Shown piece after piece: positions 32,924 to 60,782 of a stretch of 64,000 nt of DNA. Origin of the DNA: a virus (lineage: Duplodnaviria > Heunggongvirae > Uroviricota > Caudoviricetes > Crassvirales). The position numbers and the translations under genes were made by a program. The notes under the pieces are model-generated. The model was not told where the DNA came from, did no database searches, and saw only the letters and a program-made list of their open reading frames with translations. Where the stretch lies: positions 29,013-93,012 of the IMG/VR virus record IMGVR_UViG_3300033069_000976; one strand, 5' to 3'. The number at the start of each line of letters is the position of its first letter. Within the stretch, counting starts at the first letter, position 1.

Positions 32924-35524
32924 TTATTTCTTTTTAGCAGCAGGTTTCTTGGCTTTAGCAGCTTTTAGTTGATTGTTTGAAATAGCAAGGTCATTTTTCA
33001 TATTCTCCCTCTCCACTTTTCTATCTTCAGCTTTTTGCTTATTGTCATTCATCATCTTCTGCATCTCCAGAGAAACCTTCTTATTTTCAATATCCCTCTT
33101 TGTAAGTATCTCCTGATTCTTTGCAGCTAAATTAGCAATCTCCATAATATCTGGAGAACCATCACCATCTGTATCAGTAGAAGGAGCTTGGAAATAAGTT
33201 TTTATCTGTGCCTCTGTTATCTTCGTATTAGCATTAAGGTCTGCTACATATTTCTTCATTTCCATATCTTGTTGGAAATGGGCTTCTTCTTGCTCCAGAG
33301 TAACTGCAACTCTATTATTCTCAGACTCTATCTTAGATTGTTCAAGCTGCATTTCCTGCTTCTTCATTTCCTCTTGCTTATCTCTGAGGTCTTTGAATAT
33401 CTTCTGCATCTGCCTAAGTGAGTTAGTACTGTATAGTACACTTACATCATAGATAGAAGCACCATTCTGCATCATAGCCTGAGATAACTGCCTGAACTCA
33501 TTCAGTAATTGTTGGTCTTCAGATCTGGAAGTAGCAAATATCTTTAAGTCCTTGAGTTTCAAGTCTTTACCTAAAACTTTAATAAAGGCTTGCTCACCAA
33601 GATTGGTGATGTAAGATATAGTACTTTCTTCTTTATTACTTTCTATATATTGAGCAGCATCAAGTACAGCCTGATATAACTGGTCTACTACATAATTATG
33701 TGCTGCAAAATATGGTTCTGTTTGGGCAAAGGATTGAACAAGAGCATTCTGGTTAGCTGTAGCTGTTTCTGTAGCTAAAGCTCCACCAAGTCTTTGTCTG
33801 TTCATACCAATAAGTTCCCAGCACTCACTTTTTAGTTGAGCAGCCAATCTATATCTTGATTCTATCTCTGAAGTCCTTGTTAAATCCAGTCTACCATATT
33901 GACTACCAAAAGATGTTCCACCTTTAGTATTCTCAGGAGAATCATCTACAAAGATAACCCCTCTTTTTCTCGCAGCTTCTTCCCATATTTCCAAGGCATC
34001 TTGACCATCCCCATCTTTAGGAGTTGGAATATGTCTGATAGACATAGCTTGTACAACACCTTTTTCTTTCTCTAGTAATTCATAGAGTTGGTTCATACAA
34101 ACATTGTACAATACCTGGAATGGTTTCATTAAGTCAACCAGGGATTTAGCAGTTGTATTCTTTAGTTCATGAGTTACCCCTATAATTGGGGAGTAATCCA
34201 ACAGTTTAAAAGGTTTCATAAAGAATATATCTGGACCAATCTTTGTACCCTTATACCATTGATTTATCCATCCCCATTGAATATCTATTTCATTAGGGCT
34301 ACCCTCTTTATAGTTCTCATCAACAAGCATTTGTTGAGGTTCTCCTTCTTCATCAATATAGGTAAGTAAACCTGTTTTCTTTTTAGATAAATGATAAGAC
34401 TGTACTACAGTATATTTATAACCAAAGGAAGCGGTAGTATTTGTTAAACCTAACCAGTCCCTTAATTCATCATTATTCTCTTTCATCTCAGACTCAATCA
34501 TCATTCTTTCCTGAAGAACAAGTCTGTTATATGTATCATATATGATACTATCTGGACCAACTTTACCAGAGTAAAGATTTGATTCCCTAACATTTATAAG
34601 ACCATAATCCTGATGGGCTTTTCTAAGATGCTCTATTTCTTCTAAGGATAATTCAGGGAATTTTTCTATAATCTCAGAAATTTCCATTACCTGAACAGTT
34701 CCATTAGCATATGGAACATTCTGCTCACCAGATACTCCTGAAGTATATTTAGCATCAGGTGTTCCTAATTGCCAATAATTCTTAGGATTAACTACCTCTA
34801 TATTAAATCCAGTTTTTGAGTTATCCTCAAATATATGAAAGTACTCTCTGGAAGATATGAGTAAATCCCTGAAAGCATCTTCTGATTTTTCTTTACAATT
34901 AAACTGTACCTTTAAAGCAGTTAAGACATGGTTACCCCATTTCTCCCCTTCAGTAGTAAAGGTATTCATATATTCCTGTACCTTCTCAATAGAAAGCTGT
35001 ACAAACTCTTCTTGGGGAATACTACTAACATCTTCCCCTCTCATCGCTAACTCATTCATTAACAGTTTCTTACCCTCCTGGATAATAAGCTGTTGCATAA
35101 TACCAGTCTTGAATTGTAGCTCTTCATCCTTAGAATCATCATCAAAAGCTCTTACTTTATGCAAGTCAGGTCTTTTAGATAATTCCCCTATCATTGTATT
35201 AACAGGAGGATTCAGTATTGGATAATGCTTTACATATTGTGGAAGCTCTGTATTAGCCATTAGTACTTCTGTAAAAGATTGTACTTCAGGCTGTTGCTGA
35301 TAAAAGTCTGTATAATCAATTATACCTTTCATCAGGTCATAGTTCTTCACAAATGTCCTCCTATGCTTTTTATATTGGGCATAGGCTACATTAGCAAAGT
35401 AATCCATTGTGTTCTTTATCCAAGATGGATCTTCTTTCTCCTTATCAGTTTTAAACTGGTCAGGGAATATATTTAAATAGGCGAACCTTACATTTTCTTC
35501 TTTGGTTACACGGGTAATAATCAT
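32924..35524 (-). CDS. Portal protein candidate (866 aa)
   Basis: Size and position immediately downstream of, and overlapping, the large terminase. The basic C-terminal tail is KAKKPAAKKK. Confidence 0.55.
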   Translation of the reverse strand: MIITRVTKEENVRFAYLNIFPDQFKTDKEKEDPSWIKNTMDYFANVAYAQYKKHRRTFVKNYDLMKGIIDYTDFYQQQPEVQSFTEVLMANTELPQYVKHYPILNPPVNTMIGELSKRPDLHKVRAFDDDSKDEELQFKTGIMQQLIIQEGKKLLMNELAMRGEDVSSIPQEEFVQLSIEKVQEYMNTFTTEGEKWGNHVLTALKVQFNCKEKSEDAFRDLLISSREYFHIFEDNSKTGFNIEVVNPKNYWQLGTPDAKYTSGVSGEQNVPYANGTVQVMEISEIIEKFPELSLEEIEHLRKAHQDYGLINVRESNLYSGKVGPDSIIYDTYNRLVLQERMMIESEMKENNDELRDWLGLTNTTASFGYKYTVVQSYHLSKKKTGLLTYIDEEGEPQQMLVDENYKEGSPNEIDIQWGWINQWYKGTKIGPDIFFMKPFKLLDYSPIIGVTHELKNTTAKSLVDLMKPFQVLYNVCMNQLYELLEKEKGVVQAMSIRHIPTPKDGDGQDALEIWEEAARKRGVIFVDDSPENTKGGTSFGSQYGRLDLTRTSEIESRYRLAAQLKSECWELIGMNRQRLGGALATETATANQNALVQSFAQTEPYFAAHNYVVDQLYQAVLDAAQYIESNKEESTISYITNLGEQAFIKVLGKDLKLKDLKIFATSRSEDQQLLNEFRQLSQAMMQNGASIYDVSVLYSTNSLRQMQKIFKDLRDKQEEMKKQEMQLEQSKIESENNRVAVTLEQEEAHFQQDMEMKKYVADLNANTKITEAQIKTYFQAPSTDTDGDGSPDIMEIANLAAKNQEILTKRDIENKKVSLEMQKMMNDNKQKAEDRKVERENMKNDLAISNNQLKAAKAKKPAAKKK

Positions 35525-38500
35525 CCGAATATTTTTAATTGTTTCTTTCCTGTAAAATTTGTTGATCCAGTAAAGATTTTTGAATTTCCTTTAATTGGGT
35601 TTTTAGCATAATAAGATTGCATTCTTGGGTCAGTTTTGTCACTCCCTACTGCACCTATAACAGGGTCTAATTTATAAGCCAAAGCAACTGCTAATTCAGC
35701 AGCAATTACCCTATCTGTATTTACTTTATGCTTAGGGTCTTTAGAGAATTTAGTAATTTCTTCCAGAAGCATTGGGTCAGGTATTCTTGATACACCTGTA
35801 GTTTCTTTTATAATACTTCCATTTTCATCTTTCTCTATATCTATTATTTCATCCAGGTAGGATTTGAATGTACCATCCAGAAAATTTCTAATTGCGGTAG
35901 CAGACCTATGTATTCCTTTCTTTCTCTTTACAGTAGTATTTGGTACATATTCTTTTAACCATTCTGGCTGGTCTTCTAAATAATGCCCATCATTTCTGGC
36001 AATCATAAAGTCAATAAAAGACATCTCATCATTCTCACACAGGGTTCTGGCATTATAATACTTAATCAGATTCCTGGCATTCTCATTCCATTTCTCTTTA
36101 CTCTGTGGTCTTGCAGCATAGCAAGCTACAAACATATTCTGATATTTCTCTGAAGAAATACCATGCATTCTTTTATAAATATAAACTACTCCAAGTGAAT
36201 CTGAGTATTCTGCTTCACCCTGTCTGTAAGGGTCAACCCCAGCTACATACAATCCAAAAGGAGGGTGTTCCACGGGAAACTCCCATATCTGAATAGGAGC
36301 ATCAGTATCTTGAGTCTTAACAGGAAACTCAGTTATAAATGGTTTATCAGAGAATTCATGTACTATTTTTTCTCCGTTATGGAATATCTTAACAGGTGTC
36401 CCTGTTACACCTAAATCTCTTAACCTTGTTTGTTGAGCTTTAGCAGCCTCTACATTAAAATCATTATGTGTTAAAACCAAGAAGCTATCTGAAGGTTTCA
36501 GGGGCCAGTAGGCTTTAAACTTCAGAATTGTTTTTGAGTTACCTGATTTAACAGCTTTATCATACTCTGGTTCCCACCACTCTCTTAAGGCTCTTTCTTC
36601 ATTAGAAACCAGTATAGTTATATTTTGTAAATCTGGATGGTCTATACCAAGATATTCAGCCAGAGTCTTTGGTTCCTTATAAGCCATTTTAGCTCTGGTA
36701 GCAGCTATAAATCTTCCTATCTTTCCACCACCTTCCCATTCATTCTCAAACTCAAGCATGTTATAGGAATACGGATGGTAGAAAACTTCCGCTGCTTCAG
36801 CACCAACTTCCATATCACCACCAGTTCCACATAACATAACCAAACAAGATGGTTTATTACCTCCACCAGACCACCAGCAACCATCACTATCTTTTATACA
36901 ACCAATAAGATTAGGTAGAGTACCAATCTCATCAATAAGGTGAAAAGAAGGTCTAGTACCATTAGCAGCCATAGTATCAGTACCAGCCTGATAGTTCCTG
37001 ACAAGTATTTTTGAATTGGAAGATTTTGGATTTGGTAAGTTAGATGATTTATCTTTCCAACCAGCTTTAATCTCTTTCTTCCAGTCCGATACAAGTCTTT
37101 GCTTTTTAAATATTGGGTGAATATTAAGCAACCCATCTTCTATCTTATCCGTAGCTAGTTTGATATAATTAGCTGCTCCACCAGATATTACACACTCACT
37201 ATTACTATAAAATGTATATTGATGTCCAGCACAAGATCCTGCAATAACTGAATTATGTGTTACTGTATATCCATCAGTTAAAAAACATTTTGACTTATTA
37301 TCTACTGTAATACAAGTTGCCTGTTCTTTACCAAAATACTCTATATTTACTATAGATGTCTTATCCCCTCTATACTTACCTATATTATTTAACTTTCTTG
37401 GCAGTTTGAATATTGGCTTATCTGTCATAAGATTAAACCTATATTTATCTTTAGCTAAAGTTACTACACCTTTATTTTTATAACTATTTTTTGTCTTTTT
37501 GATAGTTACCTGAATACCTAAACTTCTTACTAATCTATAAAAACCATTTGCAATATTTACATCTGTTGTACAAAATTCTATTACTCCATTTTTCCCACAA
37601 CAACCATCTGTATCCATTATTCCTCTTAATAATTCCATTCTTTGCTCTACAGAGGAATAAAAATAACAATTAGGTATATGTTTATTATTTATTAAATCTA
37701 GCTCTTGAAATTTAGATAAGAGAGAATTTCTTAGTCCACCTTTCATTCCATTACTTATATTATAAGAAATACCATGTTTCCTTACTTGTAAATTATTTTC
37801 TTCTGCATATGTATATACAAAATCTGAAATTTCTTTATCTATTGTAGTTATTCCTAAAGTTCTTTTATTACCATCTCCTAACCATAATCCTAAAAAATAA
37901 GGATTTATTGGTAAATAATTCTCAGAATATTCAACAGGTTTATTATTTGGTATAAAATACCTATATGCCAAACCTTTACTATTTTTATAAGATTTTTTCC
38001 TATTTATCAGGTAGTCAGTTTTTATAGAAGAAAGATTTTTATCCTCATATTTACGGGATGAACTATTCCAAACTCTCCATATATGATTATCACAAGAATA
38101 TAAAACCCTTCCATCTCTTAGGGTAATTTTATATAAGTCTATTAATCCTTGTGGGTAAACCCCAGTAATAGTTGTTAATTTACCATCATCCCCAAATATC
38201 TTATCACCTATTTTAGCATTACCAATTAATATTTCTCCATTATTTGTATATAGAGTGGCTGTATTTATAAGTGCTTTACCAAAGTCCCTGCTACCTACTA
38301 ATGGATAGAATTTACCTTCTTCATTACATCTTTCCAGGTCATTAAATATGTCCCAATCTATATCCCTTAATAAAGGTGTTTCAATTTTCCTTACCTTTTT
38401 CTTATTAGGTAATTCTACATACATTGCAATCTTCCAATAGACCGTATGAAAATACAGTCTGCCGGGAACATGAACTGCCCCATCAGCCAAGTAAAACCCA

Positions 38501-38619
38501 TTCATACACCTGTCTTTCTCTTTTTTCCAGTATTCTATATAAGTCTCCTTATCTGCTGGATTATCAGTTAGTATAGGTTCTACCTGGTCTTTAAACCAGA
38601 TATTTGTAGTTGTTTGCAT
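35521..38619 (-). CDS. terL: Terminase large subunit interrupted by an in-frame intein (1032 aa precursor)
   Basis: Walker A, VGSRDFGK|…|SVIAG, is split by the intein. The C-terminal nuclease-like region has acidic motifs. Gene order terL-portal follows. Confidence 0.7.
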   Translation of the reverse strand: MQTTTNIWFKDQVEPILTDNPADKETYIEYWKKEKDRCMNGFYLADGAVHVPGRLYFHTVYWKIAMYVELPNKKKVRKIETPLLRDIDWDIFNDLERCNEEGKFYPLVGSRDFGKALINTATLYTNNGEILIGNAKIGDKIFGDDGKLTTITGVYPQGLIDLYKITLRDGRVLYSCDNHIWRVWNSSSRKYEDKNLSSIKTDYLINRKKSYKNSKGLAYRYFIPNNKPVEYSENYLPINPYFLGLWLGDGNKRTLGITTIDKEISDFVYTYAEENNLQVRKHGISYNISNGMKGGLRNSLLSKFQELDLINNKHIPNCYFYSSVEQRMELLRGIMDTDGCCGKNGVIEFCTTDVNIANGFYRLVRSLGIQVTIKKTKNSYKNKGVVTLAKDKYRFNLMTDKPIFKLPRKLNNIGKYRGDKTSIVNIEYFGKEQATCITVDNKSKCFLTDGYTVTHNSVIAGSCAGHQYTFYSNSECVISGGAANYIKLATDKIEDGLLNIHPIFKKQRLVSDWKKEIKAGWKDKSSNLPNPKSSNSKILVRNYQAGTDTMAANGTRPSFHLIDEIGTLPNLIGCIKDSDGCWWSGGGNKPSCLVMLCGTGGDMEVGAEAAEVFYHPYSYNMLEFENEWEGGGKIGRFIAATRAKMAYKEPKTLAEYLGIDHPDLQNITILVSNEERALREWWEPEYDKAVKSGNSKTILKFKAYWPLKPSDSFLVLTHNDFNVEAAKAQQTRLRDLGVTGTPVKIFHNGEKIVHEFSDKPFITEFPVKTQDTDAPIQIWEFPVEHPPFGLYVAGVDPYRQGEAEYSDSLGVVYIYKRMHGISSEKYQNMFVACYAARPQSKEKWNENARNLIKYYNARTLCENDEMSFIDFMIARNDGHYLEDQPEWLKEYVPNTTVKRKKGIHRSATAIRNFLDGTFKSYLDEIIDIEKDENGSIIKETTGVSRIPDPMLLEEITKFSKDPKHKVNTDRVIAAELAVALAYKLDPVIGAVGSDKTDPRMQSYYAKNPIKGNSKIFTGSTNFTGKKQLKIFG
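37252..38274 (-). mobile_element. Intein (about 341 aa) with a LAGLIDADG homing-endonuclease domain, inserted in the terminase P-loop between GK and S
   Basis: Block A after Ala1 (ALINTATLYTNNGEILIGNAKIGDKIFGDDG); block B SCDNHIW; LAGLIDADG motifs YFLGLWLGDGN and LLRGIMDTDGC; blocks F/G …CFLTDGYTVTHN followed by Ser+1. Confidence 0.7.
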
Positions 38620-51314: not shown

Positions 51315-51367
51315 TGTATGGTGGACTCTCATCCTGTCAAAGGGGTGGGAGTCACTTTACTTAACCG

Positions 51368-51438
51368 GGCTAATTAATCAAGTGGTAAGATAACAGTCTG
51401 CAAAACTGTGTTCACTGGTTCAATCCCAGTATTAGCCT
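51368..51438 (+). tRNA. tRNA-Cys (anticodon GCA)
   Basis: Acceptor GGCTAAT/ATTAGCC with discriminator U73. U8, A14, GG18-19, anticodon loop CU-GCA-AA. T-arm ACTGG-TTCAATC-CCAGT. No encoded CCA. Confidence 0.7.
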
Positions 51439-51454
51439 CTAAAAATATAAAATT

Positions 51455-51769
51455 ATGCAACAGAAAATTGATAAATTACTTAAGATTTTAAGAGAAAGAT
51501 ACATAGAAGAAGAAAAAGTTAATTGTTTAGAAGGAGGGTTTGCAAGTTTTGATAAAGGAAGAGATCGTAGTGATCCTCATTTTAAAATGTGTATTCCTAG
51601 TAACAATGAGAATGGAAGTCTTTTTCAATATGATGAGAAAGAAGATACTCTTTGTGTATGGGGAAGAGGAATAGGACTTGTTTATAAACAAGGGTATTGG
51701 GCTGCTAAAACAGGAGAATCTGGTCCACAGTATATACCAATAGAAATTTTATCACCTGAAATTTATTAA
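51455..51769 (+). CDS. Small protein (104 aa), -EIY family member (…SPEIY)
   Basis: ORF starting 16 nt after the tRNA. Confidence 0.5.
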   Translation: MQQKIDKLLKILRERYIEEEKVNCLEGGFASFDKGRDRSDPHFKMCIPSNNENGSLFQYDEKEDTLCVWGRGIGLVYKQGYWAAKTGESGPQYIPIEILSPEIY

Positions 51770-51786
51770 AACAAAAACAAACTATT

Positions 51787-52050
51787 ATGTTAAAAAAATT
51801 TGATGATGAAACATATCAGTTTTCAACTGGTAGATTCATAACACCCAATTGTGATGTTATTGGTATTGATGAAAATGGTGATTTACATGAAGGGTATGAT
51901 AATATGATGGAACCTAAATTAGAAGATGAAGATGGTACAATAGAGGTTGATCATGATAATACGGATTTTACACCTATTGAAAAACATGAACTTGCTCAAT
52001 ATATGATAAGTTTATGGAGTAAATTATTATTACAAGAACCTCAATATTAA
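51787..52050 (+). CDS. Small acidic protein (87 aa)
   Basis: ORF. Confidence 0.45.
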   Translation: MLKKFDDETYQFSTGRFITPNCDVIGIDENGDLHEGYDNMMEPKLEDEDGTIEVDHDNTDFTPIEKHELAQYMISLWSKLLLQEPQY

Positions 52051-52055
52051 ATACT

Positions 52056-52283
52056 ATGGCAATACTAACTAAAATAGAAGCTCACCGATATGGTGAAAAT
52101 CATCCTAATGGTATTAATATAGGATATAAAAGAGAGTCGAAAATATATGATCCTGAGCCTATTATAGGTGAAAGTTATTTTATTGGCTCATTTGGTTCAT
52201 CTCCTGTAACTGAAATAATATCTAAAGATGATAAGGGATTTGTATTTAAAACAAAAAATTCAACTTATAAAATAGAGTTATGA
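52056..52283 (+). CDS. Small protein (75 aa)
   Basis: ORF. Confidence 0.45.
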   Translation: MAILTKIEAHRYGENHPNGINIGYKRESKIYDPEPIIGESYFIGSFGSSPVTEIISKDDKGFVFKTKNSTYKIEL

Positions 52284-52549
52284 TAACACAATTAACCCCA
52301 GATATAAATGGTAAGAGTATAAACTGTATTATAGGAGGTGAACCTATAAATAACGCAGTGATTGTATATGAGGATTTAAGATATTATATCTTACAAGATG
52401 TTCATAGTGGTTCTTTCCCCCCTACTATAAAAGCAAGTAAATTTGGTAAAAAACTATCTTGGTGTGTAGGAAGAGGTAATAAAGGGGATTTATTCAGAAA
52501 TCAAACAAGTAACATTCAAATTATAAATCAAGAATATGAGCTATATTAA
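52280..52549 (+). CDS. Small protein (89 aa), -E(L/I)Y family (…QEYELY); paralog of 52536..52799
   Basis: Shared DGK.I.C.I…A.IV.E…YYI.Q…SW.V…NIQ..N..YE.Y. Confidence 0.5.
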   Translation: MITQLTPDINGKSINCIIGGEPINNAVIVYEDLRYYILQDVHSGSFPPTIKASKFGKKLSWCVGRGNKGDLFRNQTSNIQIINQEYELY

Positions 52550-52799
52550 AAGTTTAACAACAGAAATGGATGGCAAACACATAACTTGTAAAATAGAAAA
52601 TACAGTAATAAGTGATGCCAGGATAGTATTTGAAGAAGATAATTACTATATAGTACAAAACCTTAAAAATGGTTCTGATTGTAATGAGAAACTTGGATAC
52701 AAATACAGTTGGGTTGTTAGTGATGGGACTCCATATGCTATAGAAACCAATAGTGTAACTAATATTCAATTGTTAAATTCTGATTACGAAATTTATTAA
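52536..52799 (+). CDS. Small protein (87 aa), -EIY family (…SDYEIY)
   Basis: Paralog of the preceding gene; overlaps it by 14 nt. Confidence 0.5.
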   Translation: MSYIKSLTTEMDGKHITCKIENTVISDARIVFEEDNYYIVQNLKNGSDCNEKLGYKYSWVVSDGTPYAIETNSVTNIQLLNSDYEIY

Positions 52800-53082
52800 T
52801 TATGATAACAGATCTTATTTACTGTCCTGAATGTGATGTTTGGGAAGTAGAGTCACATATACATAAACCAATTTTAATTAACTAAAAACTAGGAAGCTAT
52901 GTCATTAAGAACATCAGGTGGAGTTTTTTCAAGAAGAAAAACAGCTCTACATTATCTGCAAAACCAGTTAAAAACAGGTCAAAAACCTTCTAAAGAAGGT
53001 CCAGTTCCTTTAACTGATAAAGATACAGAAAGGATTAAAAAAGAAATAACAACTTTACAATCACGAATCTAAAACATTTACC

Positions 53083-53289
53083 ATGCCAAAAAATCGTTTG
53101 ATAATCAGCTTTTGGGATACTACTCCCTCAAAACACAAAATTTACAATGAATCCATGAGATGTACATCTGAAGCAGGGGCTGATAAAATCATAGCCCGTA
53201 GACCAGATAAAAGTATGTCTCATGCCAGATATTTCGATAACACTGGACAGGAGATTGTATATAATTTTAATCACTTAGATCCTCAATAA
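53083..53289 (+). CDS. Small protein (68 aa)
   Basis: ORF followed by a hairpin plus T-run at about 53326..53355. Confidence 0.4.
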   Translation: MPKNRLIISFWDTTPSKHKIYNESMRCTSEAGADKIIARRPDKSMSHARYFDNTGQEIVYNFNHLDPQ

Positions 53290-53325
53290 ACAAATATATA
53301 TAAAATAATATAGGTTCAGGTGGTA

Positions 53326-53355
53326 GGGGAGGGAAGAAATTCTCTCTCCTTTTTA
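53326..53355 (+). terminator. Rho-independent terminator
   Basis: GGAGGGAAG…TTCTCTCTCC followed by TTTTT. Confidence 0.5.
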
Positions 53356-53744
53356 AAATATAAATTATGAGAAACTTACAACTTTGGTACATCAGACATT
53401 TTAAAATTATTAACATCAAGAAAGCTAATCAATTACATTTAAAACATTTTCGTAATATATATGGAAATGGTATAAATCATTTGAATTGCAGATCTTTATG
53501 GGTAGATAAACAAAATAGAGTGTACAGAGTTCAACAATTATTAATAACTAAATCTATTTGATATGGAACATTTTTTCAAAATAGTAGATAAAAGAGATGG
53601 GGAAAGTATTTATGATTCAAGAACTCCTTATCATACTGAAGCAATAGCTCTTGAACAAGGGGAAGAATTGCGTAGAGAATTAAGAGTATCTTCTGTAAAT
53701 TATAAAGTAATAGCTGAACCTGCTATGCAGGAAGCTTAAAATAA

Positions 53745-54045
53745 ATGGTAATCGCAGACACTTCTAGAGAGGTGATTAGAAGAAAGGGGTTCGACTCCCC
53801 TGTCCTCCACAATAGCTATGGCTAGTATTGCCAAGTCCTATATCCTTGAGTAAGATATAGGCAAATTAATTGGGGGACATTTGGCACTTGATTCTAATAT
53901 TACGACTAGGAGAGATTATCAGTAAACCTAAAAGGCAGAGTAATCTCCTTCAAAAGGTCAGCTATGAGAATAGCTGCCTAATTTGCGAAGTAATTCCTAC
54001 GAAACTGGGATTAAACCCCTCATCATTTGGTGAGGGGATTTTTAT
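53745..54045 (+). ncRNA. Candidate structured non-coding RNA (about 300 nt) beginning with the tRNA-like element and ending at a strong intrinsic terminator (54014..54045)
   Basis: ORF-free and GC-richer than coding. Several stem-loops (CCTATATC…GATATAGG; GGAGAGATTA…TAATCTCC). Terminator CCCCTCA…TGAGGGG followed by TTTTT. Confidence 0.35.
53785..53809 (+). other. tRNA 3'-fragment-like element: T-arm AGGGG-TTCGACT-CCCCT, acceptor 3' strand GTCCTCC and discriminator A. No matching 5' half is present.
   Basis: Canonical G53, TTCGA, C61 and an acceptor-like 7-mer. No GGRGGRY partner within 80 nt upstream. Confidence 0.4.
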
Positions 54046-54071
54046 CATTTCACCAATAAATTAACATAAAA

Positions 54072-54398
54072 ATGAAAACAATGTTTTTCAACTTTACAGA
54101 AGGTAAAGAAGTAAATCCTTTAGAAGGGATTAAGAAGTTCTTTATTAACCCTATTAATCCCAAATTATATCTCAAACTAAAAATTGAGAAAATTTGTGAG
54201 AGTATTAAACCTCATTACGGTTTTGATAGGGGATTACCTGTATTTATATATCCTTTAGCAGCATTAGGTTTGGAAACATGTACTGTTTCTTTTGCCACAC
54301 CTACTAATGGAATGATAATTACTAAAAGAGGTGCTATCTTGTTTCATATACAAGGTGAATTTTTGGTTGTAGATTCGGTTTTGGATAAGGTTTGTTAG
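54072..54398 (+). CDS. Hypothetical protein (108 aa)
   Basis: ORF followed by a terminator at 54409..54448. Confidence 0.45.
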   Translation: MKTMFFNFTEGKEVNPLEGIKKFFINPINPKLYLKLKIEKICESIKPHYGFDRGLPVFIYPLAALGLETCTVSFATPTNGMIITKRGAILFHIQGEFLVVDSVLDKVC

Positions 54399-54408
54399 TT
54401 TTCAGTGT

Positions 54409-54448
54409 ACCCTCTCCTTCTTTTAATTAGGAAGGGGAGGGTTTTTAA
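54409..54448 (+). terminator. Rho-independent terminator
   Basis: ACCCTCTCCTTC…GAAGGGGAGGGT followed by TTTTT. Confidence 0.6.
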
Positions 54449-54459
54449 ATTTTAAAATT

Positions 54460-54744
54460 ATGCAAATAAATGATATAGTTGTATGTTTACCTGGGTTTAA
54501 TAACTCAGATACAGATAAAGGAAAGCTTTTAAAAGGAGGTACAGGTTATAAAGAAGGTCTTATTGTTAAAATAAGAACAGTTGAGGAAATAATAATAAAC
54601 GAAACTTCTCCTATTATTTGGACAGATTGTGGAAGAGGTATATGGGGACAAGCTGTAAGACCTGCTACAGCTTATGAGATACAAGGTTTTAAAAAAGGTA
54701 TTACATACATAAAAAATATAAAATATGAGCCAGAATATTATTAA
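54460..54744 (+). CDS. -EIY family small protein (94 aa; …YEPEYY)
   Basis: ORF; first gene of the tandem array. Confidence 0.5.
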   Translation: MQINDIVVCLPGFNNSDTDKGKLLKGGTGYKEGLIVKIRTVEEIIINETSPIIWTDCGRGIWGQAVRPATAYEIQGFKKGITYIKNIKYEPEYY

Positions 54745-54973
54745 TATACCAATAGATACATTTTTACCTTATAGATGTGTTACCTGGGATATTAGAACAG
54801 ATAATGCTTACAGGCATTGGCGTAAAGAAAAATATAAGATATATGGTGAAGCAACATATGGTGATGAAGAGTATTACTGTATAGAAGAACCAGATTATCC
54901 TGGTGAGAATTATTACATGGTAAGAAAACAAGATTTGTTACCTTTTAGAGAGTATGCATATGAAATATACTGA
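54725..54973 (+). CDS. -EIY family small protein (82 aa; …YAYEIY)
   Basis: ORF; its stop is embedded in the junction module. Confidence 0.5.
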   Translation: MSQNIINIPIDTFLPYRCVTWDIRTDNAYRHWRKEKYKIYGEATYGDEEYYCIEEPDYPGENYYMVRKQDLLPFREYAYEIY

Positions 54974-55196
54974 TTTAATTCCTGGAAAGTATTATTATAC
55001 TGATTGGGTAGATGGTGAAGGTTATAAATATATATTACAATATACTCCAAATAAGTCTGATAATATAGATTTAACACATAACAAATTTTATAAGGCAAGT
55101 GGTTGTTTTGAAAGAACTGATGTAGTATTTAGAATTGCTACACCTTTTGAAATACAATGGTTACAAATGTGCCAGAAAAAAAAACAAATATATTGA
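54954..55196 (+). CDS. Small protein (80 aa; MHMKYTDLIPGKYYYTDW…QIY), tandem paralog of 55213..55471
   Basis: Start inside the upstream …YAYEIY-stop; shared N-terminal YTDLIP..YYYT motif. Confidence 0.5.
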   Translation: MHMKYTDLIPGKYYYTDWVDGEGYKYILQYTPNKSDNIDLTHNKFYKASGCFERTDVVFRIATPFEIQWLQMCQKKKQIY

Positions 55197-55212
55197 ATTT
55201 AAAGAGCCTATT

Positions 55213-55471
55213 TATGAACTATACTGATTTAATACCAGACCAATATTATTATACAGAGCATTGGACACATTACCCTTATATATTTAAAGCTGATAATTTA
55301 GAACATTGTATGCATTTAGGTGTTAGAGATAAATTATTAGGCTCTTCTGCAAATTTTTCAAAAGTCACTAAATACAGACTTGCTACTTATCAGGAGATAG
55401 TTTGGTTTGAATTGTGTAAGAAAGCAGGTAAATATATTGAGAAACCCATTTTTGAAGAAGAAATTTATTAA
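55213..55471 (+). CDS. -EIY family small protein (86 aa from MNYTDLIP; …FEEEIY)
   Basis: Internal ATG chosen by the paralogous N-terminus; the track ORF starts at 55157. Confidence 0.45.
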
Positions 55472-55473
55472 TT

Positions 55474-55659
55474 ATGTATTATATAAAATGTAATTATGCT
55501 TGGAATAATCGAGCAATAATAGGGAAAATATATGAAGTTGAGGATTTAAATACGAATAGTGGGTTTTCTTGTTATACATGGGCTAAGCTTTTAGAAAAAC
55601 AATATCCTGTAAATAAAAATGCTTTTGAAATAGTATTATTAGAAGAAGAAATATATTAA
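55474..55659 (+). CDS. -EIY family small protein (61 aa; …LEEEIY)
   Basis: ORF. Confidence 0.45.
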   Translation: MYYIKCNYAWNNRAIIGKIYEVEDLNTNSGFSCYTWAKLLEKQYPVNKNAFEIVLLEEEIY

Positions 55660-55783
55660 CTTATGGGAGAGAGACAGAATATAAAGAAGCTAATCTATGC
55701 GGAACAAGCTAAATTTCCTGCTGATAAAGAGAAAATAGCAGAATTAAACAGGTTATTAAGAAAACATCCACCTCTTATAGAGG

Positions 55784-56056
55784 ATGAAAAAAGGTATAAC
55801 TTTACAAACAGATTATATGAAAGAAAATCAATTTAAAATAGGTGATACTATAACTATACATAAAGAACCAAGTATGTGGTCTTCTGAATTATCCGATAAA
55901 AATCCAAAAAAAGGTATAATATATCCTTGGAAAGGCATCATAGAAGGATTAAAAACAACTGAAATAGGACTAAATGGGTTAATCAGTGGTTATGGTTTTT
56001 CTATGGATCATATAAAAGATTACACAATAAATTCAAATACATATGAAATCTACTAA
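55784..56056 (+). CDS. -EIY family small protein (up to 90 aa; …NTYEIY). The true start may be internal (MKENQF…).
   Basis: ORF. Confidence 0.45.
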   Translation: MKKGITLQTDYMKENQFKIGDTITIHKEPSMWSSELSDKNPKKGIIYPWKGIIEGLKTTEIGLNGLISGYGFSMDHIKDYTINSNTYEIY

Positions 56057-56219
56057 ATTTCACTATCTTTGTTCAGAAGAAGTAAGATTGGATAAAGATG
56101 TAAGGCTATTAATATTAAACCCTATAATGGGAAGAAACTATGTAGTCCCATATTATAGTAATAGTCCACCTAAATCAGGTAAGATTCTATATGGTTTTAA
56201 AACAAAAAGACTAAAATGA
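56043..56219 (+). CDS. Small protein (58 aa; MKSTKFHY…), start embedded in the upstream YEIY-stop
   Basis: ATG inside tATGaaatctactaa; ATGA overlap with the next gene. Confidence 0.35.
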   Translation: MKSTKFHYLCSEEVRLDKDVRLLILNPIMGRNYVVPYYSNSPPKSGKILYGFKTKRLK

Positions 56220-56404
56220 AATATTATAAAGTATTAAAAAGCTGGGATTACTATTCGGAAGATTCTGAAGAAATTCTTTTCAGCTATATAAAAGGAAGTT
56301 ATATAACAGAAGATACTTTTCCCGAAAGGAATTTTGGTAGTTATGGAAGTTTTGAGGATTACTATGAAGAAGTTAAAGAAATTCCTTACGAAGAAATATA
56401 TTAA
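56216..56404 (+). CDS. -EIY family small acidic protein (62 aa; …PYEEIY)
   Basis: ORF. Confidence 0.45.
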   Translation: MKYYKVLKSWDYYSEDSEEILFSYIKGSYITEDTFPERNFGSYGSFEDYYEEVKEIPYEEIY

Positions 56405-56419
56405 ACAAACAAACCATAT

Positions 56420-56671
56420 ATGAAAAAAGAAAATGAAATCCCAATTGGTACAAGAGTAATGTTAAACCCTACATCTAGATGGGTAAATAGTGGATCATTA
56501 AAACCAACCAGTAAAAATCCTTTAAATATAAAAGGGACTATAGATGGTTATAATAATAATGATGATACATATGAAGTTGAGTGGGATAATTGGGGACTGA
56601 ATTCTAATTACAAAATAGGAGAAGACCTAATTATATTAGGTGAAAATTTAAATCAAGAATTTTATTATTAA
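56420..56671 (+). CDS. -EIY-like small protein (83 aa; …NQEFYY)
   Basis: ORF. Confidence 0.45.
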   Translation: MKKENEIPIGTRVMLNPTSRWVNSGSLKPTSKNPLNIKGTIDGYNNNDDTYEVEWDNWGLNSNYKIGEDLIILGENLNQEFYY

Positions 56672-56689
56672 TAATTAAAAACAAACAAA

Positions 56690-57160
56690 ATGGCAACAAA
56701 AGCAAAAAACATGGAAGTAGCAACTGCAACACAATTTACATTGGAAGAAGTTCCAAATTTACTTCAGCAGGTAAATGATCAAATTAAAAAACTTAAAGGA
56801 GATAAAGAGAGGGCTGCTAAGATAACCACCCCTTTGGGAGCATTCGGGATAATTTCCGATATTAAGGATCCTGCTCGTTTAATGGATGCTTATGCATTCA
56901 TAACAAGGAAAGCGGCTGCTTATGCAGAATTTACCCCTGTATTTCAGGAAGTAGATAGCTTAACTCCTATTAAAGCTTTTACTGAAGGTGGTCATTCTTT
57001 AAAGCAATGGCAGGATGAAATCATGGCTCAGTACAGGGAAACTACTTTTGAATCTAAACTGGCTAAGTTGACCGAAGCTAAGAGGATTTTGGAAGAGAAC
57101 CTAAGCAGGGAGCAAAAGTTTGTTGCTTCTATGCAAAACATTAAAGATTTGTTTGCATAA
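56690..57160 (+). CDS. Hypothetical protein (156 aa), compositionally distinct, terminator-flanked insert within the array
   Basis: ORF plus a downstream hairpin/T-run at about 57177..57214. Confidence 0.5.
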   Translation: MATKAKNMEVATATQFTLEEVPNLLQQVNDQIKKLKGDKERAAKITTPLGAFGIISDIKDPARLMDAYAFITRKAAAYAEFTPVFQEVDSLTPIKAFTEGGHSLKQWQDEIMAQYRETTFESKLAKLTEAKRILEENLSREQKFVASMQNIKDLFA

Positions 57161-57176
57161 TCTTCCATTTTTAATA

Positions 57177-57214
57177 ATAGCCCTCACTTAATTGTGGGGG
57201 CTATTATTTTAAAT
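57177..57214 (+). terminator. Rho-independent terminator
   Basis: ATAGCCCTCAC…GTGGGGGCTAT followed by TATTTTAAATTTTTT. Confidence 0.55.
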
Positions 57215-57239
57215 TTTTTATCATTGAATTTGAATAATT

Positions 57240-57494
57240 ATGAAATATACTAAAGAGTATTATGGAAAAAATAAAATAGTTTTACAGATTGGTCTTGATG
57301 AGGAATTAAGACAATTGGCTTGTGAGTTATTAGGTATAAAATCTTTATCAAATTTATATGCTGGCATGTGTATTAATCTAGGGATTGGGCTACACTGTAA
57401 TGAGGAATGGTATAGGGAGCATGATTATATTATTATATCAAAAGAAGAATTTTATCAACATCAAAATATAAATAAAGCATATGAAATATATTAA
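57240..57494 (+). CDS. -EIY family small protein (84 aa; MKYTKEYY…KAYEIY)
   Basis: ORF; the junction module with the next gene lies at 57478..57494. Confidence 0.5.
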   Translation: MKYTKEYYGKNKIVLQIGLDEELRQLACELLGIKSLSNLYAGMCINLGIGLHCNEEWYREHDYIIISKEEFYQHQNINKAYEIY

Positions 57495-57753
57495 AGGTAC
57501 TTATTACCATATTATTTATAAGTATGTAGATCCATTTTTAGCTTTTTGTCTAGAGGATAATGACAAAAAGATATGGGCAAAAATTGTAAATTTTGACGGA
57601 TCTACTGGTCCAATTCAGGAATTGATTTCTTTTGTAGAAGCTAAATTGGCAACTCCTAAAGAAATAGCTTATTTTGAACATATACAAGCAGGGAATGAAA
57701 CATCTTTTGAGGGGTTTAATTATAAAAATGATGAATATGAAATACTGTATTAA
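57481..57753 (+). CDS. -EIY family small protein (90 aa; MKYIKGTYY…DEYEILY)
   Basis: ORF. Confidence 0.5.
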   Translation: MKYIKGTYYHIIYKYVDPFLAFCLEDNDKKIWAKIVNFDGSTGPIQELISFVEAKLATPKEIAYFEHIQAGNETSFEGFNYKNDEYEILY

Positions 57754-57982
57754 AAGAGTAGGAAATATTTCAGAAATGAATGAATTTTTTACAAAATTAA
57801 ATGATAGAAAGTACTTTTCTATTAATTCTTCTTTTGAAGATGAGTATTATTATTATCATTATCCTTTATGTAATAACAAATGTATATTCCTAGGAAAACA
57901 AAAAGGTTATAAAGAAATATCCTTTGAAGATTTTAAAAGAGTTTATAATCAAAAAGAAATCATAGAATATGAAATATATTAA
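57737..57982 (+). CDS. -EIY family small protein (81 aa from MKYCIKRV; …IEYEIY)
   Basis: Internal ATG embedded in the upstream YEILY-stop; the track ORF starts at 57674. Confidence 0.45.
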   Translation: MKYCIKRVGNISEMNEFFTKLNDRKYFSINSSFEDEYYYYHYPLCNNKCIFLGKQKGYKEISFEDFKRVYNQKEIIEYEIY

Positions 57983-58274
57983 AGGAGATTATATAGTCTT
58001 ATTAACTACTTGTGTTGGAGTAGAAGATATTTGGCGAAGTATACCAATAGGGTATGTTTACAAACTTACTAGAAACTTTGATTGGTTTGCTTTATGTATA
58101 GAAAAGAATATGAATGGAAATTTTGATGGTTGGTCTATAAGTAATTCAAAAGAGAATAAAATATCACATGGTAAAATGACAGTTAGGGCTGCTGCACTAT
58201 ATGAAATTGAGGACTATATAAGAGCTGGTAGACCAGTAAAAGCGAATCAAATAAGGGCATACGAAATTTATTAA
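57969..58274 (+). CDS. -EIY family small protein (101 aa; MKYIKGDY…RAYEIY)
   Basis: ORF. Confidence 0.5.
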   Translation: MKYIKGDYIVLLTTCVGVEDIWRSIPIGYVYKLTRNFDWFALCIEKNMNGNFDGWSISNSKENKISHGKMTVRAAALYEIEDYIRAGRPVKANQIRAYEIY

Positions 58275-58293
58275 ATAATTAAAACTTAATATC

Positions 58294-58542
58294 ATGAAAT
58301 ATCAACTTGTTTATCAATCTTCTAACTACAAAGATTTTCCTAAACCAAAAGTAGGCGAACCTGGGTTTTTTAGAAAACTTGCTAATAATCGTAATAATTG
58401 TGAATTACAAGATGCTAAAAAACGTATTAGAAAGAATTTACATGGTGGGTATAATTATACACCATCCAGAGCTTATTTTAACTTTATTCAAAAACATACT
58501 GTAAAAACCTTTTCTGGTATTTTATGGAATAAAAATATTTAA
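58294..58542 (+). CDS. Small basic protein (82 aa; MKYQLVYQ…)
   Basis: ORF. Confidence 0.45.
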   Translation: MKYQLVYQSSNYKDFPKPKVGEPGFFRKLANNRNNCELQDAKKRIRKNLHGGYNYTPSRAYFNFIQKHTVKTFSGILWNKNI

Positions 58543-58690
58543 CCATGTTAGTTTTAATTATATTAATAGCTATTATAGTTGCTACCATTATTGTATTTGA
58601 ACCAAATATAGACATTACTACTGAAAAAGAAGTACTCTTATGGTTCAATAATAGTGGTTATAAAAGGAAATTTATAAAATTGTTTAATTT

Positions 58691-59002
58691 ATGACAAAGA
58701 AAGAAATCTTAACAAAACTAATTAGAAAATATAACTTAGTTTTACGTGAAATAAAACCTGTTAAAGACTATAGAGAGATACTTAGAATTGTTGATAATCA
58801 TAATTGTGGAATGGGAATATGTACTGTGACTGATGCCAATTTTAATGTAAGCATATATAATAAAGCATGGGTAAATAGAGAAAAAACAGATAATTTCTAT
58901 TGGCATACTTATCCCAATGAGGTAACTAGTAAAGCTGAAATTATTGATTGCTTACAATTTAGAGTTGATAAAATGAAAAAAATACTAAAAACCTGTAAAT
59001 GA
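58691..59002 (+). CDS. Hypothetical protein (103 aa); paralog of 48017..48394
   Basis: Shared C-terminal motif LQFRVDKMKKIL. Confidence 0.45.
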   Translation: MTKKEILTKLIRKYNLVLREIKPVKDYREILRIVDNHNCGMGICTVTDANFNVSIYNKAWVNREKTDNFYWHTYPNEVTSKAEIIDCLQFRVDKMKKILKTCK

Positions 59003-59232
59003 AGAGTAAAGAACAGAAGTTAATAGATATATGTTTTTCATTATGTATATCTCAACTTATAGATATGAAGAAGTATCCCGAAATATGGAAAAATAAATCT
59101 ATACCAGAAGTAGCTGAATGGATTACTGATCAATTAAAACAATGTGGTTTTGAAACTTTTCCAATAGGTTCTTCATGGGGAGTATTAATAGAGGATAAAG
59201 ATTTACTAAAAAAATTAAAGGGGGGAATATGA
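58999..59232 (+). CDS. Small protein (77 aa)
   Basis: ORF with a 4-nt overlap. Confidence 0.4.
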   Translation: MKSKEQKLIDICFSLCISQLIDMKKYPEIWKNKSIPEVAEWITDQLKQCGFETFPIGSSWGVLIEDKDLLKKLKGGI

Positions 59233-59837
59233 ATATAACATTAGAAAAATACATAAAAGTACTTAATGCAGGATTTTCACTGGATATACTGTATTTGTTA
59301 AAACTTATTAAAGATAAAGTAGATATAACAGATGCTATCCTTCTTCCTAAAATAGGAGCTATTAACCAGATGTTATTAAGAAAACAATTAATAACTGAAG
59401 ACAATCAGGTTACTATGTCTGGAGAAGAGTTATTGTCTTATATGGAAGACGATGGAAACCCTAAAGAGTTAGTTAAGAGGTTGAAAACCAATGATTTTGA
59501 GAAGTGGTGGGTTACTTATCCTGCAACAAACATGTTTGTTTATAAGAATAAGACCTTTAAAGGTACTCAAAGTAAAAGAGTTAAGAAGCTGGATTGTAAA
59601 CAATTGTTTAACAAGTACATTAATGAAGGTTTTACTGCTGATGATATAATAAATGCTACTGAATATCATATTCAAATGGCAAAGGATTTATCTTTTAAAA
59701 AAGGAGAAAATCAGATAAGTTTTATAGGTAATTCCTATAGATATTTAAATGAGAAGATGTTTCAACCTTTTATTGAGATTTACAAACAAAATATTAACAA
59801 ACAACCTGAACAGGTTGGAAATGCTGTAGATATATGA
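59229..59837 (+). CDS. Hypothetical protein (202 aa)
   Basis: ORF. Confidence 0.5.
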   Translation: MNITLEKYIKVLNAGFSLDILYLLKLIKDKVDITDAILLPKIGAINQMLLRKQLITEDNQVTMSGEELLSYMEDDGNPKELVKRLKTNDFEKWWVTYPATNMFVYKNKTFKGTQSKRVKKLDCKQLFNKYINEGFTADDIINATEYHIQMAKDLSFKKGENQISFIGNSYRYLNEKMFQPFIEIYKQNINKQPEQVGNAVDI

Positions 59838-60127
59838 AATATACAATAGAATATCTAAAAAGACACCCAGTAGCTGTTAGTTGTGTAACTGAGGAACAAT
59901 TTTTAAAAGTTACTAAATTATTAGAATTATCTTTTGCTGGTAGAACAGATTATTGGGAATCTTACAAAGAAAGAACTAAGGTTAGTTACACTTTTAGGAC
60001 TGGTGGACCAATTCCTCATCCAATAGGAGATGATTGCTATGGTTCTAATTTTGATGGGTTTGATATTATATCAGCAGAAACACTTTTTTTAGATAATCAA
60101 ATTTTTGAAAATTATGAGATATACTAA
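59834..60127 (+). CDS. -EIY family small protein (97 aa; MKYTIEYL…ENYEIY)
   Basis: ORF. Confidence 0.5.
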   Translation: MKYTIEYLKRHPVAVSCVTEEQFLKVTKLLELSFAGRTDYWESYKERTKVSYTFRTGGPIPHPIGDDCYGSNFDGFDIISAETLFLDNQIFENYEIY

Positions 60128-60347
60128 AGATAATATAAACGGAGTTACTTTTAGAGTAGGAGAGCGAGGTACTGCCATATACATAATAGATCCTAATTAT
60201 AAAGATACCAGAAGCTTGTCAAGAGTAAGTGGACATTCTGTAGAAAGTATATTACGAGAATTAAATAGTAATAACTGGATTGAAGTTATACAAGTTGATG
60301 GGGAATGGGTAAAAGGACAAAAATTTTTAGAACCTGAAATATACTAA
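60105..60347 (+). CDS. -EIY family small protein (80 aa; MRYTKDNI…LEPEIY)
   Basis: Start embedded in the upstream NYEIY-stop. Confidence 0.5.
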   Translation: MKIMRYTKDNINGVTFRVGERGTAIYIIDPNYKDTRSLSRVSGHSVESILRELNSNNWIEVIQVDGEWVKGQKFLEPEIY

Positions 60348-60348
60348 T

Positions 60349-60576
60349 ATGTTAACAAAAAAAGATATAGGTAAGAAAATAGTTATGTTTAGAAAAATAG
60401 AAGACAAAGACTGGGGAATGATTAGTAAAATAAAAGTAAGATGTAAAGTAGGAGAGCCTGTTACACTCAAACATATAGCAATAAATAACCAATTTAGTAG
60501 TTTACACACAGATAAAGACGGTTATTACCCTGCTCATTGTTTTAAATTATTTGAAGAACCTTACGAAATTTATTAA
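60349..60576 (+). CDS. -EIY family small protein (75 aa; …EPYEIY)
   Basis: ORF. Confidence 0.5.
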   Translation: MLTKKDIGKKIVMFRKIEDKDWGMISKIKVRCKVGEPVTLKHIAINNQFSSLHTDKDGYYPAHCFKLFEEPYEIY

Positions 60577-60578
60577 TT

Positions 60579-60782
60579 ATGGAAAGATTTAAAAGAATAG
60601 ATAAGAGTATTTCTGCTCATTGTTGTTTTGCATATTCAATAGTAGATACCAAAGATGGTCTTGAAGATTTTGGAAAACCAGAAGATAATTACTGGAAAAC
60701 AACAGTATGTGAGTGTTTTGAAGAAGAACATGCTGATATGATTGTTAAAGCTTTAAATGAATTATATGAAAAAGAAATATGA
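60579..60782 (+). CDS. Small protein (67 aa), Cys-containing
   Basis: ORF. Confidence 0.4.
   Translation: MERFKRIDKSISAHCCFAYSIVDTKDGLEDFGKPEDNYWKTTVCECFEEEHADMIVKALNELYEKEI

Follow-up and report, generated by a model that had tools for sequence, protein, structure and literature searches.

Shared C-terminal tails and overlapping 15-nt gene junctions in a small-gene array of an uncultivated tailed phage

The window analysed here is a stretch of 64,000 nucleotides (nt) of DNA, positions 29,013 to 93,012 of IMG/VR virus record IMGVR_UViG_3300033069_000976 (Crassvirales), and is part of the genome of an uncultivated tailed phage with a G+C content of 32%. Genes for the terminase, portal, major head and tail proteins occupy the minus strand up to approximately 45 kb, from where a long early-type block of small genes without assigned function runs on the plus strand. 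This block contains an array of genes whose products share a short C-terminal tail such as YEIY, interspersed with genes that lack it (Table 1). A scan of the window for open reading frames (ORFs) detected no tail ORF on the minus strand and none in positions 1–49000, and the tail genes are confined to 51455–60576. At a number of junctions the codons of the tail also contain the start codon of the next gene, within a recurrent 15-nt module, TATGAAATATAYTAA.

The exact module occurs three times, always on the plus strand (57239, 57480 and 57968), and 0 of 100 dinucleotide-preserving shuffles gave any copy. Six near-variants lie at further gene junctions, five of them (52535, 54959, 55213, 56042 and 60113) with up to two mismatches to the 15-mer and the sixth, at 57736, lengthened to 18 nt by a Leu codon. 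The first-pass annotation of this DNA had listed six sites, of which those at 57478 and 57966 fit the consensus (true starts 57480 and 57968) while the other four are variants; its coordinates were 2–3 nt too low, and it was also incomplete, having missed the copies at 57239, 52535 and 55213. In the junction table, overlaps of 14 nt were recorded at 52549, 54973, 56056, 57494, 57982 and 60127 and an overlap of 17 nt at 57753. Wherever genes overlap in this manner the upstream ORF ends in Y-E-(I/L)-Y-stop, and in all cases the embedded ATG opens the next ORF. For the genes beginning at 52536, 56043, 57240, 57481 and 57969 it is the sole usable start, with an in-frame stop 1–4 codons upstream and the next start codon 11–48 codons downstream. 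Similarity between orthologues begins at the embedded ATG regardless of the upstream cassette. Since a single start is available to these five genes, the dual-coding reading put forward in the first pass is correct.

Embedded starts of the form TATGAR were also observed in other tails, namely YEPEYY-stop (window 54725–54744, 20-nt overlap), LYEKEI-stop (60766–60782, 17-nt overlap in relatives) and, in the related contig L123, FTYEKN-stop (17379–17392, 14-nt overlap, giving MKKTK). At 11098–11115 of L123 the module is present with the next gene 7 nt past the stop, and its embedded ATG opens a five-codon mini-ORF (MKYTK-stop).

The pair TAT-GAA (Tyr-Glu) holds an ATG in the +1 frame, so that YEIY-stop is read as M-K-Y-(T/I)-(K/N). 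A TGA stop gives D or E as the fifth residue (MKYTD, MNYTD), and a TAG stop gives R or S (MKYTR in L123). N-termini of the form MK[YF][TI] were found at 21 of 35 embedded starts as against 2 of 170 other starts. These two exceptions are the gene at 57240, which has a relic upstream, and that at 59834, which belongs to a cassette family located at module junctions elsewhere. Confinement of the N-terminus almost wholly to embedded starts indicates that it is a by-product, causation running from tail to N-terminus. The earlier proposal that MKY(I/T)K is the alternate-frame image of YEIY-stop is thereby upheld.

Relatives were collected by several routes. L001, an IMG/VR contig of 120 kb, was recovered via the neighbouring 202-amino acid protein; L123 and L124 via the 156-amino acid protein inside the array, at 24% identity; and L125–L132 as homologues of one cassette family. 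L025, L094/L136, L137 and L138 were added by pattern scans, with contigs of 25–180 kb. These lineages have few proteins in common, at 25–60% identity. Runs of small genes ending in YEIY were present in all of them (22 ORFs in L001, nine in L137), and L136 carries eight consecutive EPQYEIY tails that are mostly TAC-coded and have mostly non-overlapping junctions. Searching IMG/VR with the bare 15-mer gave mostly single chance matches in AT-rich contigs, and nearly all of approximately 120 control loci matching the 15-mer held 0–1 tail ORFs, compared with 22 in L001.

A set of 63 non-redundant tails was compiled from six or seven distantly related phage lineages. Counting back from the C-terminus, these have Tyr (60) or Phe (3) at position −1, Ile at −2 (58), Glu at −3 (63), Tyr (54), Pro (4), Glu (3) or Phe (2) at −4, Asn (17) or Gln (12) at −5, Pro at −6 (15) and Glu at −7 (21). 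The tail is borne by proteins that otherwise have little in common: when five N-terminal and six C-terminal residues were trimmed off, 52 such proteins from five phages grouped into 34 sequence clusters. The body of the protein encoded at 56420–56671, which has an EFYY tail, is also found inside proteins of Klebsiella phages, as a domain whose match ends short of the tail. In the best-aligning family the tail follows the last helix after a linker of 0–14 residues. For the protein with the tail at 58260..58274, AlphaFold2 gave a predicted local distance difference test (pLDDT) score below 50 for residues 95–101 in a model that was otherwise confident (mean 82).

Codon usage was examined in the 45 tails that lack an embedded start. 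Their Ile codons (ATT 19, ATA 19, ATC 4) and final Tyr codons (TAT 36, TAC 9) closely follow the genome-wide frequencies of.42/.52/.06 and.85/.15, respectively. Within families, differences in the last two codons comprised 150 synonymous versus 23 non-synonymous changes (0 at the final Tyr), a comparison made ungapped back from the stop between phylogenetically non-independent family pairs, which gives a direction and not a rate; at positions −5 to −12 differences were mostly non-synonymous. Neutral codon usage together with mostly synonymous change in the absence of an embedded start indicates selection on the peptide. All 29 overlapped tails encode residue −4 as TAT. Where no start is embedded, Pro (16) and Glu (8) occupy this position besides Tyr (18), and 8 of the 18 Tyr codons are TAC. 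This excess, approximately threefold over background, suggests that stray ATGs are avoided. The final Tyr of overlapped tails is TAC in 19 of 29, because the downstream protein has Thr4 and not through any need of the tail. These sequence data point to the C-terminal peptide (E)-(P)-[N/Q]-[Y/P/E]-E-I-Y-COOH, not the 15-nt DNA module, as the primary conserved element. The first-pass annotation had centred on the module; that emphasis has to shift, since E-I-Y-COOH is equally conserved on the 45 tails without an embedded start and in L136.

Twelve tails in the array do not serve as a module start and include the variants PEIY, EEIY, EFYY, PEYY and TAC-coded YEIY. The next gene lies 1–20 nt past the stop in these cases, the exceptions being a 99-nt gap after 52799 and the 20-nt overlap at 54744. 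A second recurring junction string, GAAATTTATTAATTATG (EIY-stop, TT, ATG), was found at the non-overlapping junctions 52788–52804, 55460–55476 and 60565–60581. ATGA junctions are likewise used many times in the window.

Table 1. Array, junction modules, tails and terminator-like hairpins, in window coordinates (aa, amino acids)
Feature	Position	Strand	Context
Tail-gene array	51455..60576	+	~19 genes, 61-104 aa, ending [Y/P/E]-E-[I/L/F/Y]-Y-stop; from ORF lists and junction table
PEIY-stop tail	51758..51769	+	No embedded start
Module variant TATGAGCTATATTAA	52535..52549	+	YELY-stop of 52280-52549; start of tandem paralogue 52536-52799 (MSYIK)
YEIY tail, TAC GAA ATT TAT TAA	52785..52799	+	No embedded start; TACGAAATTTATTAA
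Intrinsic-terminator-like hairpin	54409..54442	+	Precedes operon 54460-57160
EPEYY-stop tail	54730..54744	+	TATGAG (Tyr-Glu) six codons before stop is start of 54725-54973; -20 overlap
Module variant TATGAAATATACTGA	54959..54973	+	YEIY-stop (TGA) of 54725-54973; start of 54960 (MKYTD)
Module variant TATGAACTATACTGA	55213..55227	+	Start of 55214-55471 (MNYTD); would be YELY-stop of 54960 if extra A removed
EEEIY-stop tail	55457..55471	+	Then TT ATG
EEEIY-stop tail	55645..55659	+	From junction table
Module variant TATGAAATCTACTAA (ATC for Ile)	56042..56056	+	YEIY-stop of 55784-56056; start of 56043 (MKSTK)
YEEIY-stop tail	56390..56404	+	From junction table
Intrinsic-terminator-like hairpin	57173..57208	+	After 156-aa gene
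Relic and exact module	57215..57253	+	LNLNNYEIY-stop, no upstream ORF; start of 57240-57494 (MKYTK)
Exact module	57480..57494	+	YEIY-stop of 57240-57494; start of 57481-57753 (MKYIK)
18-nt variant TATGAAATACTGTATTAA, extra Leu codon	57736..57753	+	YEILY-stop; start of 57737-57982 (MKYCIK); -17 overlap
Exact module	57968..57982	+	YEIY-stop of 57737-57982; start of 57969-58274 (MKYIKGDY)
YEIY tail, TAC GAA ATT TAT TAA	58260..58274	+	No embedded start; TACGAAATTTATTAA; disordered in AlphaFold2
Left-hand repeat TATGAAATATACAAT	59833..59847	+	ATGA junction after 202-aa gene; start of cassette 59834-60127 (MKYTI)
Module variant TATGAGATATACTAA (GAG for Glu)	60113..60127	+	YEIY-stop of 59834-60127; start of 60114-60347 (MRYTK)
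PEIY-stop tail	60333..60347	+	Left breakpoint of two-gene indel vs L001 immediately after stop
YEIY tail, TAC GAA ATT TAT TAA	60562..60576	+	No embedded start; TACGAAATTTATTAA; then TT ATG

Two junctions in Table 1 are irregular. Relative to L127 and protein P0001 (93% identical), gene 54960–55196 has an extra A in an A9 run at 55176–55184 and ends early in ...KKKQIY; in the relatives the reading frame continues as far as ...KYIEFKEPIYELY-stop, across the MNYTD start at 55214, and both the P0001 and L127 orthologues end in ...KEPIYELY. The extra A could have arisen in assembly, or it could be genuine, as a frameshift or as a site of slippage-prone expression. The second irregularity is a 25-nt remnant at 57215–57239, directly after the terminator of the 156-amino acid gene, that resembles the 3' end of a family-31 cassette in L127 and L125. 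On this resemblance it is the scar of an imprecise cassette deletion, which accounts for the module at 57239 having no upstream gene.

When seven non-redundant relatives were mapped at the level of cassette families, the array resolved into a conserved backbone with variable slots. The slot between the 156-amino acid gene and the MKYIKGDY gene holds 2–7 cassettes in differing combinations. Listed by family, its contents are [relic of 31]-27-21-61 in the window, 0-30-23-31-27-36-21 in L127, 0-31-36-23'-21 in L129, 30-23-31 in L125, 0-27 in L131 and 0-30 in L126. Most of these are subsets of one order, consistent with deletions between repeats. Family 23 is placed differently in L129 than in L127, and family 38 occupies a different slot in the window from that in L001. 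The MKYIKGDY gene itself (57969–58274) is preceded in relatives by up to six different cassettes, with similarity starting at the ATG.

Four insertions or deletions were resolved to the nucleotide, and both crossovers of each fell within (AT)TATGARATATAC(T). The window cassette 59834–60127 is missing from L001, its right-hand repeat being the module variant at 60113..60127; the genes that adjoin each other at window 57968 are separated in L001 by an extra cassette; and, between L127 and L129, whose flanks are 96–99.75% identical, family 27 has been lost and a family-23 cassette gained. Comparison of breakpoints in related phages, which the first pass had proposed as a check on its linker hypothesis, thus revealed cassette gain and loss with both ends inside the module in four clean cases. 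Tandem paralogues lie astride modules at 52280/52536 and 54960/55214, and further pairs were found in L001, L123, L025 and L137. Paralogues so placed are the expected product of unequal exchange, in keeping with the earlier suggestion that the array grew via the module. Some events do leave scars, the relic at 57215–57239 being an example. In a separate part of the array, three consecutive proteins (82, 49 and 103 amino acids) encoded at 58294–59002 are 100% identical to those at 9296–10004 of L001, although the flanking genes show 59–90% identity; the block suggests a recent exchange.

Terminator-like hairpins were predicted on the plus strand at 51324, 54016, 54409 and 57173, with weaker candidates at 53326 and 54415, and none coincided with the module. 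The strong hairpins at 54409–54442 and 57173–57208 delimit long units of genes. No plus-strand terminator was detected from 57240 to the end of the scan at 61500, so the genes in this interval appear to form one polycistron. A search of 45–64 kb against Rfam returned nothing at the junctions. Shine-Dalgarno sequences preceded 6 of 73 genes as against a background of 11%, which amounts to no signal, and positions −10 to −13 and −3 were A-rich. A-rich initiation without a Shine-Dalgarno sequence has been described for Bacteroidota, and on this analogy the host is probably a member of that phylum. The first-pass annotation had the module guarantee translational coupling; the module may favour it, but where a tail is followed by TAAnnATG such coupling could occur equally well.

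The explanation we consider probable joins these observations as follows. A shared C-terminal peptide on many small proteins of unrelated sequence is kept by selection at the amino-acid level, for which the substitution and codon data argue directly. With Tyr at −4 encoded by TAT, the genetic code itself places an ATG in the +1 frame of TATGAAATATAYTAA; the next gene begins at that ATG with a 14-nt overlap and its N-terminus follows, as ORF structure and orthologue N-termini show. A start inside the footprint of the terminating ribosome and lacking a Shine-Dalgarno sequence would probably be used by termination-reinitiation. Each such cassette is flanked by direct repeats of 12–16 nt, where breakpoints were located, and recombination or replication slippage between the repeats would delete, insert, duplicate or reorder whole genes from ATG to ATG, leaving their neighbours intact. 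As the last and weakest step, the tail, in which Glu precedes an aromatic residue that bears the free carboxylate, would most likely serve as a short linear motif for docking and tether the proteins to one partner of host or phage origin.

For this last step the flexible end, the invariant aromatic residue with free carboxylate, the invariant Glu and the enriched N/Q-x upstream favour docking, and docking to one common partner has somewhat less than an even chance. A shared degron is the main alternative and is rather unlikely. A wider generalisation, doubtful as it stands, is that a clade of large low-GC phages, probably of Bacteroidota, directs dozens of unrelated small early proteins to a single hub by means of one address tag, (P)-[N/Q]-Y-E-I-Y-COOH, the codons of which have been co-opted as an in-frame plug with the next start. 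Candidates for the hub include a sliding clamp, a different platform for replication or transcription, and a protease, and cassettes could be swapped, duplicated or deleted with the tag and the translation of the neighbour preserved, a plug-and-play arrangement in 15 nt. Three other functions were rejected by reasoning. A +1 frameshift fusion at the module is incompatible with tRNA-Tyr, which cannot re-pair on AYU; cleavage by a prohead protease would trim two residues only, and the genes are early-type; and periplasmic PDZ recognition fails because the proteins have no signal peptides.

Several observations weigh against this explanation in whole or in part. A precise ATG-to-ATG loss at 58999–59232 took place at a plain ATGA junction with only ATGAA as microhomology, and in a crude adjacency test 36 of 44 module junctions were variable versus 29 of 31 ATGA junctions. 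Selection for intact genes alone could place surviving breakpoints at gene borders. The AlphaFold2 model of a second family also ended in a coil tail, at low confidence (mean pLDDT 66), only approximately 14 database homologues were available for the largest family, so that sampling was narrow, and the non-independence of family pairs mentioned above belongs here too. The idea of the module as a special recombination hot spot was dropped, as it is no more variable than ATGA junctions. Of the linker hypothesis there remain the four clean indels and the displaced family 23, with breakpoints in the module. Selection for intact genes contributes to the breakpoint pattern, and the sequences identify the module as a crossover site in demonstrable use, though not the only active one, that yields scar-free, in-frame products.

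The explanation centred on the peptide has to be set against others that take the nucleotide sequence as primary. The 15-nt module might itself have been selected as a portable coupling or recombination linker, leaving YEIY as a functionless passenger. Its exact copies, the crossovers within it, the second recurrent junction string (three copies of GAAATTTATTAATTATG) and the module at 57239 without an upstream gene would all be understandable on that basis. The copy at 57239 is nonetheless accounted for as a deletion relic, and module junctions are not more variable than ATGA junctions. E-I-Y is moreover retained with neutral codon usage on 45 tails that have no embedded ATG, and the eight EPQYEIY tails of L136 are mostly TAC-coded and not overlapped, leaving selection of the DNA distinctly unlikely. 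Equally concerned with nucleotides is the suggestion that GAAAUAUAYUAA is an RNA signal, either an A/U-rich unstructured element or a repressor or nuclease operator, needed at gene ends for initiation or termination where Shine-Dalgarno sequences are lacking. The A-rich leaders and the presence of a start no more than 20 nt after almost every tail gene accord with such a signal, but other A/U-rich codon strings would serve as well, yet Glu-Ile-Tyr is invariant while third codon positions are free to vary, and the region has no Rfam match; we regard it as highly improbable.

Descent and chance offer two further accounts. Ancient tandem paralogues could have retained a functionless tail as a dual-coding relic, their overlapping ends evolving slowly because each change affects two proteins as well as a start and a stop. 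Module-joined tandem pairs are present in the window, L001, L123, L025 and L137, and many bodies resemble small SH3-type barrels, partly as judged by sequence inspection. This account is very unlikely in view of the non-overlapped tails, which are just as invariant, the 34 clusters among 52 tail proteins and the persistence of the tail across lineages whose shared proteins are only 25–46% identical; the EFYY family, whose body is tail-less in Klebsiella phages, provides a first hint of a tail newly acquired. Chance arising from AT-rich codon bias and common MK... starts can hardly be credited. TAT, GAA and ATA are indeed preferred codons, and AT-rich viral contigs often contain a lone match to the 15-mer, but the counts refute it: the 100 shuffles gave 0 matches, amino-acid frequencies predict an E-I-Y C-terminus in approximately 4e-4 per gene against some 19 genes observed, and the approximately 120 control loci nearly all had 0–1 tail ORFs against the 22 of L001.

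Similarity searches with other parts of the window were largely uninformative. Pfam and PHROGs gave no informative match for ten array proteins, and neighbouring genes were likewise without annotation. No similarity to cultured phages was found at the DNA level, and the capsid protein showed only approximately 25% identity to a Leptolyngbya phage and to a crAss-like phage. A spaced pattern of two modules had 0 matches in 185,579 reference genomes, so no prophage was identified and no host could be assigned by this route. The 156-amino acid protein encoded at 56690–57160 had no match among cultured phages and PHROGs was uninformative. Homologues of 149–161 amino acids occur in L001, L123, L025 and L125–L131, within or beside tail-gene arrays where flanks are available, and in the window the gene has its own A-rich leader and its own strong terminator; the protein may partner the tail proteins functionally or just mark a conserved anchor point.

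Other features were observed around the array. A tRNA-Cys (GCA) gene at 51368–51439 lies between a terminator-like hairpin (51324–51353) and the first tail-bearing gene. A stretch at 53747–53981, within a 330-nt gene-free gap that is also kept in L001, weakly resembles the permuted tmRNA family RF04321, scoring 29.7 bits where the gathering score is 47 (E = 0.01); it includes a T-arm-like hairpin at 53785–53801 and is followed by a terminator-like hairpin at 54016–54037. The large terminase subunit ORF (35521–38619, minus strand) is unusually long at 1032 amino acids, and P-loop profiles of DnaC-like loaders and primases match the N-terminal third as well. At 15862–17977 of L001 a DnaB-like helicase gene is apparently split by a 251-amino acid ORF, in which LAGLIDADG-type homing-endonuclease motifs were recognised by reading of the sequence, and YEIY-tailed genes lie directly on both sides.

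If the proposed explanation holds, the array would lend the old 'linker' model of modular phage evolution a concrete example defined at the sequence level, in which the linker codes in two frames and breakpoints fall within approximately 15 nt. The tail would be an apparently undescribed C-terminal motif common to over 30 sequence families within the 'dark matter' of phage proteins, and a pull-down with a single peptide could reveal what dozens of ORFans bind or what becomes of them. The array also illustrates that a peptide motif can create the start codon of a neighbour (TATGAA), which explains recurrent N-termini that might otherwise be mistaken for a signal. The 15-nt junction could further guide the design of compact in-frame polycistronic cassettes for hosts that initiate translation without Shine-Dalgarno sequences.

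A literature search found no description of the YEIY tail in phages, nor of a junction, cassette or shared-tail system of this type. Each kind of element is already known; what appears new is the tail itself and the union of overlap coupling with a C-terminal motif in one recurrent junction. Stop-start overlaps of the ATGA or TAATG type, with termination-reinitiation, occur among trp operon genes and RNA phage genes. There too the genes are on the same strand and the terminating ribosome is at or beside the next start, but those overlaps measure 1–4 nt, as opposed to 14 (or 17 or 20) nt for the module, which in addition has a recurrent sequence and a conserved C-terminal motif. At the internal-protein locus of T4 an N-terminal capsid-targeting sequence, subsequently cleaved, directs proteins to the prohead. 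The likeness lies in a short terminal peptide common to variable, non-homologous small proteins at a plastic locus with a shared exchange point; the tail in the window differs in being C-terminal and encoded in an early-type operon.

With regard to docking, the C-terminal tail of SSB is of a similar kind. The bacterial beta-clamp-binding motif QL(S/D)LF is also found at protein C-termini (PMC9690074). It shares with [N/Q]-Y-E-I-Y the chemical class pattern amide-hydrophobic-acidic-aliphatic-aromatic with a free carboxylate, which is a resemblance only; here Tyr replaces Leu and Phe, only 29 of 63 tails have N or Q at position −5, and some tails read PEIY or EEIY.

Integrons resemble the array in comprising small promoterless genes of diverse function that are gained, lost and reordered cassette by cassette. 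No attC-type inverted repeats were seen in the junction sequences, which were read directly and contain a 15-nt direct repeat instead, and no integrase was found among the proteins searched, though no dedicated search was made. The junction in the window is, moreover, coding, and the events appear to be based on homology or microhomology and not on site-specific recombination. The closest described shuffling system is that of the promoter-early stem-loops (PeSLs) of T4-type phages, which lie at small-gene borders and contain exchange points within the repeat (Arbiol et al. 2010, PMC2839356; Comeau et al. 2014, PMC4122927). In both systems the cassettes of a hyperplastic region are bordered by a repeat, inside which breakpoints of indels and replacements fall. 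The PeSL, however, is an intergenic sigma-70-type promoter with a terminator hairpin, whereas the module is a 15-nt sequence coding in two frames, without hairpin or promoter, that encodes a peptide under selection. In accessory regions of T4, a large lytic phage, recombination at short homologies rapidly duplicates and deletes genes, and the boundaries vary between replicate lineages (Srikant et al. 2022, PMC9391042). The array differs in having a standard repeat at each cassette border, such that events would remain in frame and neighbouring genes intact.

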